From positions 136,183 through 200,182 of the forward strand of contig CAVPXI010000005.1 in NCBI GenBank assembly GCA_963709585.1: a DNA stretch of 64,000 nucleotides, written 5' to 3'. Shown one piece after another: positions 15,759-17,799 of the stretch. Origin of the DNA: Candidatus Dormiibacterota bacterium. Lineage in GTDB: Bacteria; Chloroflexota; Dormibacteria; Aeolococcales; Aeolococcaceae. Within the stretch, counting starts at the first letter, position 1, and each line of letters opens with the position of its first letter. Made by a program: the position numbers and the translations under genes. The notes beneath the pieces were generated by a model that saw only the letters and a program-made list of their open reading frames with translations, did no database searches and was not told the DNA's origin.

Positions 15759-16436
15759 ATGCCGCGGTTCCGCGTTCCCGACTACATCCGAACCACCTTC
15801 GCGGTCAGCGATTGGCGCGCTTTCCGCCTGTGCGGCATGGACGAGGTCGGTCGCGGCGCGTATGCCGGCCCGCTGGTTGCCGCCGCGGTGGTGCTGCCAC
15901 AGCGCTTCCGTCACCCGTTGCTCCGCGACAGCAAGTTGCTGACCGCAAAGCAGCGCGAGCTGGTTGGAGCGGTGCTTCGGGAGCGGGCGGTGGCCTGGGC
16001 GGTCGCCGAGGTGAGCGTGGACGACATCAACGCGCGCGGTCTCGGGTGGGCGAACGTCGAGATCTTCCGGAGGCTGGTCGACGCCGTCGACGCCGACGGG
16101 TACTGCTGTGACGGCAACCTGCGCATCCCGGTGTCGCGTCCGCTTCACTCACTGGTCGCCGGCGACCGCAAGGTGCCGGCGGTCTCGGCTGCGTCGATCA
16201 TCGCCAAGGTCCATCGCGACGCGCTGATGACCCGCATGCACGACGACGCGCCTCACTACAACTGGGCGAGCAACAAGGGGTATGGCGCCCCCGAGCACCG
16301 AGCGGCAATCCGAGAATACGGTCCACACCCAGCGCACCGGCGCGTCTTCCTCGCGTCAGTCATGCAGACCGAGCTCGACCTGACGGGAGCCGTTGCTCAG
16401 TGCGCCGTCTCAGCCCCCGGAGTGGGAGCCGGCTGA
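15759..16436 (+). CDS. rnhB: Ribonuclease HII
   Basis: DEVGRG, DSKLL, AASIIAKV.RD, NKGYG, HRR. Confidence 0.95.
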   Translation: MPRFRVPDYIRTTFAVSDWRAFRLCGMDEVGRGAYAGPLVAAAVVLPQRFRHPLLRDSKLLTAKQRELVGAVLRERAVAWAVAEVSVDDINARGLGWANVEIFRRLVDAVDADGYCCDGNLRIPVSRPLHSLVAGDRKVPAVSAASIIAKVHRDALMTRMHDDAPHYNWASNKGYGAPEHRAAIREYGPHPAHRRVFLASVMQTELDLTGAVAQCAVSAPGVGAG

Positions 16437-16443
16437 CCCTCGG

Positions 16444-16671
16444 TCAGTTGGCGCCGCAGCCGCAGCTGCCGCCGCAGCAACCGCCACCGCCGCTCACCCC
16501 GGGGGAATCGTCCGACCCGGAGCCGGCGTGGACCGCCACCCGGCTGATGAGCGGCATGCTGGCCCGGCTCTCGCAGCTCGGACAGACGGCGGCGACTTCA
16601 CGATCGGCCATCGGGCGGAGCAGCTCGAACACGGCCGAGCAGTCGTTGCAGCGGTATTCGTACAGAGGCAT
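16444..16671 (-). CDS. FmdB family zinc-ribbon protein
   Basis: MPLYEYRCNDC...CPSC, Cys/Gly-rich tail. Confidence 0.88.
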   Translation of the reverse strand: MPLYEYRCNDCSAVFELLRPMADREVAAVCPSCESRASMPLISRVAVHAGSGSDDSPGVSGGGGCCGGSCGCGAN

Positions 16672-16701
16672 TGGCACAAGCGTACGCACGATCACGACGA
16701 T

Positions 16702-16731
16702 TTGACAAGTCGAACATCCGTTCGGTACACT
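16702..16731 (+). promoter_or_regulatory. Sigma70-type promoter containing a LexA (SOS) box
   Basis: TTGACA 16702-16707, CGAAC-ATCC-GTTCG 16711-16724, TACACT 16726-16731, ATG 6 nt later. Confidence 0.8.
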
Positions 16732-16737
16732 CGACCC

Positions 16738-17052
16738 ATGCCCATCCGCACCATCGAGCTTCAACTCCCGCTCGACGCCGATGAGGCCGGATCGCTCGCT
16801 CGGCGTCGCGTCACCCATCTCGCGACGGTCGACGGGCTCGATCCGGCCGCCTTCGTCAAGTTGATCCGATTCTTTCCGTCACTGCGGGCAATCTACGGCG
16901 CATCCGAGGCTGAGCTGGCCCGGCTCGTCGGGCCTGTGGCAGCCGCACGCATCAGATGGTTTCTCGACGCACCGCTGGACACGGCGCTTGCTCGCGAGGC
17001 CTCACCGATCAACCTTCGAGACATCGCGCCCCCGCTTTCCTCCGCCGCCTGA
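16738..17052 (+). CDS. Small tandem helix-hairpin-helix-like protein
   Basis: LATVDGLD..KLIRFFPSLRAIYGASEAELARLVGPVAAARI resembles UvrC/XPF C-terminal (HhH)2. Confidence 0.65.
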   Translation: MPIRTIELQLPLDADEAGSLARRRVTHLATVDGLDPAAFVKLIRFFPSLRAIYGASEAELARLVGPVAAARIRWFLDAPLDTALAREASPINLRDIAPPLSSAA

Positions 17053-17174
17053 CCTGTCACCGGCCCTGCGTATACGGAGCGTTGAACAGTGCAGGCGACG
17101 TAGAATCAATCTTTTGGTGCCATATCAATCGCTTGGCGCCATACGTCGCAGGTGAGAACGGAGGTTGTTGCAGC

Positions 17175-17799
17175 ATGCGGAGTCGACGTTCGAGAGCCGC
17201 CCTGCTTGACCGCGGTCGCGCGGCAGATACGATCAGTGATCTTGCCGATCACGCGGTGACACTGGCGCGCGGTGCAGGGAGCGCGGCGCTTCCGACTGTG
17301 CAGCGCGGCGCGGAAGGATTGAGCCAGGTCCTCCAGACGGCGGCCGGTACCCTGGCGGATACCGCCGGGCAGATCGCCTCAGACGAGAAGGTCGTCGCGG
17401 CGAGCAACGCCGCTCGTGAACGGATCGCAGACGTGTCAGGCAAGCTGAGCAGCGCCGTCCGCCCGAAGAAGAAGACACATCGCGTGCGCAATCTCCTGAT
17501 CGGAGCGGCCGTGGTCGGCGGAGTGTTCGCGCTCATCCAGTCGCCGCTCCGCGCCAAGATCCAGGAGCGCCTCTTCGGCCCGCCGCCATCCGATGATGAC
17601 GATCTTCCGCAGATCACCCTGCCCGACGATGATCCTCATGTCGAGATCACCGATCTGACCAAGGCATCGAAGTCCGAGGCCGACGCGGCAACCGACGTCG
17701 TCGGTACCCCGGTGGTCGCCGAGTTCGACGTCGCGCGCCGGACGAGGCCACGGTCACAACCACGACGAACCCACCGACAACCAGGAGACCAATGCCTGA
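17175..17799 (+). CDS. Hypothetical membrane-anchored protein (apparent frameshift at about 17723)
   Basis: Ala-rich helical N-terminus, one TM helix; removing one T at GAGTTC gives a stop at 17797-17799 overlapping the next ATG. Confidence 0.6.

Follow-up and report, generated by a model that had tools for sequence, protein, structure and literature searches.

The stretch of DNA analysed here (the window, 64,000 nucleotides) contains a member of an undescribed, family-restricted SOS gene family built on a known fold. Our preferred reading, to which we assign a probability of about 0.4, is that this LexA-boxed gene gives rise to an XPF-type dimer, perhaps docked on the β-clamp (DnaN) and likely cleared by ClpXP. 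With it, the SOS regulon of an uncultured soil lineage, Ca. Dormibacterota, gains a member that is undescribed and almost universal. The gene also suggests that an XPF-type dimerisation domain has been recruited in bacteria as a stand-alone, probably unstable regulator; the narrow taxonomic range limits the reach of the finding. Literature on Dormibacterota LexA, on Aeolococcus DNA repair, on SOS, clamp and HhH proteins and, by title, on Dormibacter genomes and DNA damage (supplementary tables apart) yielded no description of the gene, and the earlier note on this DNA, which had not recognised it as a described SOS gene, was right to that extent.

Locus, distribution and LexA box

The features of the locus, numbered from the first letter of the window, are as follows.

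15759–16436, plus strand: rnhB (RNase HII), upstream of the SOS gene
16444–16671, minus strand: divergent FmdB-type zinc-ribbon gene (PF09723)
16702–16707, plus strand: −35 hexamer TTGACA (TTGAC-N in 57 of 77 homologous loci)
16711–16724, no strand: LexA (SOS) box CGAACATCCGTTCG between the two promoter hexamers, conserved across homologous loci
16726–16731, plus strand: −10 hexamer TACACT (TANNNT downstream of the box in 75 of 77 loci)
16738–17052, plus strand: 104-residue ORF, a stand-alone XPF/ERCC4-type (HhH)2 protein, with stop codon TGA at 17050–17052
16756–16773, plus strand: N-terminal motif E7-L-Q-L-P-L12 (family form E-[LM]-x-L-P-[LF])
16777–16977, plus strand: (HhH)2 domain, residues 14–80, by profile, model, fold comparison and conservation
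17044–17049, plus strand: C-terminal Ala-Ala after a variable tail

The spacer from TTGACA to TACACT is 18 nt long. The perfect palindrome CGAAC-N4-GTTCG, which the earlier note had placed between the two hexamers and ahead of the ORF, lies exactly there. The same note had the ORF starting with ELQLPLD; this heptamer is present, but as residues 7–13, and the ORF begins MPIRTIELQLPLD. The ATG at 16738 is 7 nt past TACACT, and an in-frame ATG or GTG stands 14–15 nt past the box core in 75 of the 77 loci. To judge from the sequence, the transcript is leaderless. No intrinsic terminator was found in 16400–17300. Four of 21 RNA runs were compared with the locus; one of them (X5) gave contigs across the ORF, which carry no strand, start or level and so do not demonstrate expression.

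Synteny among the loci extends to rnhB upstream and to the divergent zinc-ribbon gene; the genes downstream vary. An operon with a repair gene was considered and rejected, none being evident from the neighbourhoods of the homologous loci. The zinc-ribbon gene, which starts 40 nt from the LexA box, has a promoter of its own (16679–16708, minus strand; TACGCT and TTGTCA) whose −35 element overlaps that of the SOS gene. It is apparently leaderless too, and adjoins the SOS gene in 44 of 77 loci.

How widely is the gene distributed? The family search returned 133 proteins, and the homologous loci are mostly from Ca. Dormibacterota, including Ca. Aeolococcus, Amunia and Changshengia. A survey of the class (251 Dormibacteria genomes) gave a match in 60 of the 63 genomes of the host's own family; that in G414 is only weak and lies in a long frame, which leaves 59 of 63, each with a single copy. 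Weak matches appeared in 6 of 187 class genomes outside the family, and both of those inspected (one in G267) are LigA. A phylum sample of 201 genomes gave seven strong matches, all within the family, and an exhaustive profile search found some 21 family representatives or fragments and then generic HhH proteins. Across the class and phylum samples and the profile search, then, the gene was not found outside one Dormibacteria family. These tallies take in some genomes that are flagged as unpublished (G168, G223, G267, G390 and others); just the naming of one outside match as LigA draws on one of them directly (G267), and no conclusion rests on them. A phage origin was rejected: viral contigs contained no relative, and a comparison with viral folds gave nothing at E ≤ 0.001.

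The homologues share 16 invariant columns at 45–90% identity. Two are longer, one an rnhB read-through and the other an artefact of upstream extension; no real fusion of the (HhH)2 protein was found among them. With its single-copy conservation, and with the host's own uvrC intact, the gene is what it had been taken for from the sequence, a stand-alone gene and not a fragment of a known one.

Is the box real? GAAC-N4-GTTC occurs once in the window, against a chance expectation of 0.70, and 55 of 100 shuffles had at least one copy. Since a lone box is not above chance, its reality rests on conservation among homologous loci. From 82 relatives found, 80 loci were kept and 77 parsed; L029, L045 and L068 were left out because the N-terminal motif could not be located in them. 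The core is perfect in 73 of the 77 and has at most one mismatch in all 77, compared with 4 of 3704 random 200-nt windows, so that box and homologue do occur together, a point on which the earlier note had staked its reading. In 33 of the loci there is no divergent zinc-ribbon gene within 700 nt, and all 33 retain the box (32 of them perfectly), which argues that it belongs to the (HhH)2 gene. The operator overlaps the promoter, an arrangement conserved across orthologues.

GAAC-N4-GTTC is a LexA box in Chloroflexota. For Firmicutes and Actinobacteria its use is documented (PMC3323433). The host genome has a full LexA gene with GAACATCCGTTT (one mismatch) in its own promoter. Boxes also precede imuA (perfect, ahead of an imuA-imuB-dnaE2-like cassette), uvrA (one mismatch), yebC-ruvC-ruvA (perfect core), lhr and a LysM gene, most SOS gene names in the host being assigned from translated sequence. 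In the same genome dinB, uvrB, polA and ssb showed no nearby box at one mismatch or fewer, and at the recA promoter no box is clear. The rank of the 16711–16724 site in a PWM scan is circular, the matrix having been built from the gene's own boxes.

Full LexA is present in 57 of the 63 family genomes. Genus g4 (three small genomes: G087, G141, G388) lacks both the (HhH)2 gene and full LexA, a single co-loss event and possibly a loss of the SOS regulon. On this evidence LexA very probably represses the (HhH)2 gene, and induction by DNA damage is likely. The g4 genomes keep a UmuD-like gene beside umuC, a umuD-umuC-like pair (L253).

Other boxed genes of the host genome (G000) came to light. Several paralogous repeat-like genes, which we take to be DUF222/HNH-like, have promoters with a LexA box that is perfect or has one mismatch (C7:481905, C10:27225, C23:158624, C6:115618, C23:195586, C14:418950 and C21:94228); the downstream ORFs were read at five of these seven sites. 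About 1.5 kb from lexA, a small membrane-anchored LysM-like gene (C11:84131–84495) has two tandem boxes and resembles the YneA-type SOS division inhibitors. Sites resembling the box also precede short ORFs of unassigned function at C15:185749 (minus strand), C7:612951 (plus strand) and C6:153863, which are candidates for other lineage-specific SOS genes.

Fold and descent of the (HhH)2 protein

What kind of protein does the gene encode? The Pfam profile HHH_5 matches it at E 8e-4, under the curated cut-off for this protein and over it for its homologues P0034 and P0040. The AlphaFold model is helical over residues 14–88 (mean pLDDT 79, with values above 90 in the core and low ones at the termini), and profile and model agree on a pair of HhH motifs linked through a connector helix. 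Structural comparison of the model gave ERCC1 at Z 8.2 (rmsd 5.3, 79 aligned; a modest VIA value for a helical domain), FAAP24 at 7.7, XPF at 7.6 and Hef at 7.5, with UvrC at 6.9 and LigA at 6.0 among other enzymes. Foldseek against the PDB returned nothing at E ≤ 0.001, its best rows being XPF, ERCC1 and UvrC; a profile search of the PDB gave FAAP24 and Hef at E of about 0.001. NCBIfam has no match for P0001; of 80 members, 47 have a weak match to UvrC and 25 one to Hef, too low to name them. In the ESM Atlas the first match is probably the family's own cluster, which has 61 members and no name, and generic HhH clusters come next. No catalytic domain, ERCC4 nuclease or nuclease-like domain included, was found in the 104 residues. 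The tandem HhH protein without catalytic domain that had been read from the sequence thus stands, with a fold of the XPF/ERCC1/Hef type.

Residue and motif counts refer to 131 near-full-length homologues (P0001–P0121, P0124–P0132 and P0137), fragments and the two long forms excluded. Hairpin 1 reads G-h-[DE], position 35 being Asp or Glu in 122 of the 131 and Gly in two, and hairpin 2 is two residues short. G-X-G hairpins are described as necessary for binding duplex DNA (PMC6320978, PMC3905867), and since both are altered here canonical binding of double-stranded DNA is doubtful. R24, H27, Y53 and the run R71-x-R-W-F-L-D-A-P79 are near-invariant. The conserved positions cluster in the first helix, the connector, the last helix and the tail, and the DAPL tail aligns with TAPY of Hef. 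XPF-family domains dimerise through (HhH)2 (PMC6320978). Because the conserved elements are those that form XPF-family dimers, an XPF-like homodimer seems reasonably probable.

From what did the protein descend? Core-against-core profile scores were 65 for ERCC4-(HhH)2 nucleases (a set that descends from one match of the family profile), 46 for LigA and 42 for UvrC of the lineage. A tree on 60 columns, too low in resolution to place the family, gives a long-branched single clade outside those of LigA and UvrC. Descent from an ERCC4-type nuclease through loss of the catalytic domain is likely.

The same five-helix (HhH)2 fold is found in XPF, ERCC1 and FAAP24 and in archaeal Hef/XPF (PDB 1z00, 4bxo, 2kn7, 1x2i). 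FAAP24 and XPF share the shortened second hairpin; the aromatic at Y53 is conserved too, and the tail aligns with that of Hef. However, the Dormibacteria protein differs from XPF, ERCC1 and Hef in having no ERCC4 nuclease or helicase, in being bacterial and LexA-boxed, in its G-h-[DE] first hairpin and in its added Ala-Ala, and most of the genomes have no cognate ERCC4 partner. Having no ERCC4 domain, it falls outside the XPF/MUS81 (ERCC4) family. The C-terminal (HhH)2 of UvrC and the HhH of LigA are of the same fold, and the local UvrC has a similar deletion in the second hairpin; on the other hand, these are large enzymes that keep G-h-G and basic residues, score lower and form separate clades. 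An origin as a split-off UvrC C-terminus was rejected, the host's own UvrC retaining its (HhH)2.

Could the protein serve a local ERCC4 nuclease? The host genome (88.8% complete) has no ERCC4 domain, and of 52 family genomes 9 have one. Across the class such domains are sporadic (26 of 201 genomes; loci L192–L211), and the 19 matches listed are all without (HhH)2. Since ERCC4 is rare in the family and the listed class examples are without (HhH)2, a nuclease partner is unlikely, and we rejected a local one. Some of the class proteins with an ERCC4 domain terminate in an Lsr2-like tail.

The N-terminal motif and the β-clamp

The earlier note had read QL-P-L near the N-terminus as a pentapeptide that binds the clamp. 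The canonical clamp motifs are Q-φ-x-[LM]-[FL] and Q-φ-x-[LM]-x-[FL] (PMC11139829). Neither the pentamer nor the hexamer occurs in the N-terminal stretch of any of the 131 homologues; Q9 is kept in only 60 of them, and position 5 of the pentamer register is Asp or Gly. We therefore discarded QLPLD as a pentameric clamp motif. QLPLx motifs of a non-typical kind are described in some actinobacterial DnaE2 (PMC3919608), but those are Gln-based, whereas in the Dormibacteria protein the Gln is the variable position.

Conservation follows another register. E7 is found in 122 of the 131, L10 and P11 in all, and L12 in 125; E-[LM]-x-[LM]-P-[LFIM] fits 120. Since the shifted hexamer E-[LM]-x-L-P-[LF] is conserved, the protein may still bind the clamp. 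The hexamer is hydrophobic at positions 2, 4 and 6 and free at 3; the N-terminus in which it lies is modelled with low confidence, and its flank is often acidic. The hexameric clamp motifs of Hda and Pol IV are likewise hydrophobic at 2, 4 and 6 and variable at 3, and that of Hda also sits in a flexible N-terminus (PMC11139829). The Dormibacteria motif differs from them at position 1, where Gln defines the class: it has Glu in 122 of the 131 and never Gln, and its binding to the clamp is putative. In the consensus clamp peptide the change of Gln to Glu strongly cuts affinity, and Gln is not essential, as reported in the same source (PMC11139829). The host's other clamp-type motifs keep Gln (DinB QLDLF, ImuB QADLL, DnaE QTSLF, MutS QLTLSI), as does the tail of the neighbouring RNase HII, which counts against docking of the (HhH)2 protein.

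The motif has a second likeness. Between E-L-x-L-P-L and the Y-E-L-x-L linker of ERCC4-(HhH)2 nucleases the alignment needs no gap, and in view of this the motif may be an inherited structural element. An anchored test of the resemblance gave p 0.003–0.004, with the register picked after the alignment had been seen; compared locally and freely, the two showed no significant resemblance (26 of 150 shuffles).

Modelling with DnaN, which the earlier note had proposed, gave a signal of a kind. The co-fold of DnaN with two copies of the protein scored 0.47 against 0.02 for the best of three controls, at least 53% of contacts being shared between runs and partner pLDDT at least 84; it was rated weak, with no interface given. 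In calibration, 116 of 157 solved pairs passed the mark, as did 2 of 215 mismatched ones; of these, only 18 solved pairs and both mismatches lay at or below 0.60, a range rated more often wrong than right. The DnaN co-fold is unlike the calibration in having two copies and alignments of its own, and it may recall solved clamp–peptide complexes. Taken with the motif, the model makes clamp docking by the (HhH)2 protein a tentative proposal that we place somewhat short of even odds.

The DnaN used was from the same genus, the host's own dnaN being split over two frames (G000 C7:571927–573035). The same is true of ligA (C14:382547–384668), which runs in frame into uvrC. These splits are probably assembly errors, given that 39 of 40 relatives have dnaN as one unbroken match. 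Upstream of ligA-uvrC, a PcrA/UvrD helicase gene (G000 C14:384574–388116, minus strand) contains a long insertion that, judged by eye, resembles an intein carrying a homing endonuclease.

Turnover, mechanism and alternative readings

A conserved feature that the earlier reading of the sequence had missed is the C-terminal Ala-Ala, found at 75 of 77 loci and in 121 of the 131 proteins, against 76 of 2079 coding-like host ORFs (3.7%). The tail before it has low pLDDT and varies in sequence and in length (13–28 residues, with one outlier of 57). LAA is also the end of the host's tmRNA tag, and the genome has both clpX and clpP. A terminal Ala-Ala is given as the main ClpXP determinant (PMC7652416), and the Ala-Ala end is likely a ClpXP degron. 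ClpXP turnover of the protein is, we think, quite probable. The combination of a tight leaderless SOS promoter with a likely degron hints at a product whose persistence would do harm, for instance an inhibitor or a checkpoint factor.

There are partial precedents. SocB of Caulobacter binds the clamp. It is a ClpXP substrate (PMC5422525), and E. coli RecN is an SOS protein that is likewise degraded by ClpXP, through its C-terminal residues (PMC6856136). No sequence or fold relation of either to the Dormibacteria protein was found; moreover, SocB is a toxin with an antitoxin, whereas no partner gene is evident beside the Dormibacteria gene.

How, then, might the protein act? DNA damage would lift LexA repression of the gene, and its nuclease-less product would dimerise in the manner of XPF. 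The two weak Glu-type tails could then engage the two pockets of the dimeric clamp; since a dimer presents two low-affinity motifs, avidity would offset the change from Gln to Glu. So placed, the protein would be a transient brake at the time of damage, competing with Pol III and the Y-family polymerases at stalled forks, and ClpXP would clear it on recovery through the C-terminal Ala-Ala. In this full form, a chromosomal SOS replication brake holding both clamp pockets and timed by its degron, the proposal is unlikely. The small genome G004 keeps the gene and the box, with a copy that does not end in Ala-Ala and with no Y-family polymerase found; translesion polymerases are therefore unlikely to be an obligate partner.

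The earlier note had proposed a damage-inducible adaptor or inhibitor tethered to the clamp. Its inducible part is made likely by the conserved LexA box, its nuclease partner has become unlikely, canonical binding of double-stranded DNA is doubtful, and its clamp docking is left with a weak signal. If it does bind DnaN, the protein would count among the rare natural clamp ligands that lack Gln (the 2024 review consulted names only the δ subunit) and would be a candidate replication checkpoint, and its Glu-type motif would be one that Gln-based searches miss. If the brake is true, it would be for the replisome the counterpart of SulA in division.

A rather unlikely alternative to the clamp-docked dimer does away with the clamp. 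An SOS-induced XPF-like homodimer would sit on branched or single-stranded DNA and shield forks or repair intermediates, and the N-terminal motif would be the ERCC4 linker packed on the dimer, with E7 against an invariant Arg. The linker [YF]-[EA]-[LIV]-x-[LVMT] is indeed carried by 29 of 36 ERCC4-(HhH)2 proteins, R24, R71, R73 and W74 are near-invariant, and the XPF (HhH)2 homodimer, which has no canonical second hairpin, is described as binding single-stranded DNA (PMC6320978). However, the acidic residue that replaces the second Gly of hairpin 1 and the absence of the basic run of the lineage's UvrC speak against a DNA-binding role, the monomer model gives the motif no confident packing (pLDDT 57 over residues 1–10), and the weak DnaN signal points elsewhere.

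An improbable reading has the protein act as a decoy or adaptor, its (HhH)2 pairing with UvrC or with the HhH of LigA, or its RWFLDAP surface binding another SOS protein, so as to tune incision or ligation. UvrC is present in 15 of 15 family genomes, many of its copies share a two-residue deletion in the second hairpin, and XPF-family domains are known to form heterodimers (PMC6320978, PMC3905867). Yet UvrC of the lineage ends at the last helix, without an anchor tail, the family is not nested in the UvrC or LigA clades of the low-resolution tree, and ERCC4 partners have the scarcity noted above.

That the ORF is spurious or a decayed piece of a repair gene, with the box serving the zinc-ribbon gene, has a negligible probability: about one box per 64 kb is expected by chance and the divergent gene begins close by, but the ORF is conserved and single-copy, the box outlasts the divergent gene, the host's uvrC is intact with ligA elsewhere, and the two longer homologues are artefacts.

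The other neighbour, RNase HII, has a clamp-type motif at its own C-terminus (QTELDL; window 16365–16382, plus strand), with QLDLTF, QLDLSF and QMNLF in relatives; Q-x-x-[LM]-(x)-[LFI] is found at the tail in 56 of 58 loci (from loci L001–L075). The E. coli enzyme is said not to bind the clamp (PMC11253446). Unlike it, the RNase HII of this lineage may, given the conserved tail motif, tether ribonucleotide repair to DnaN.
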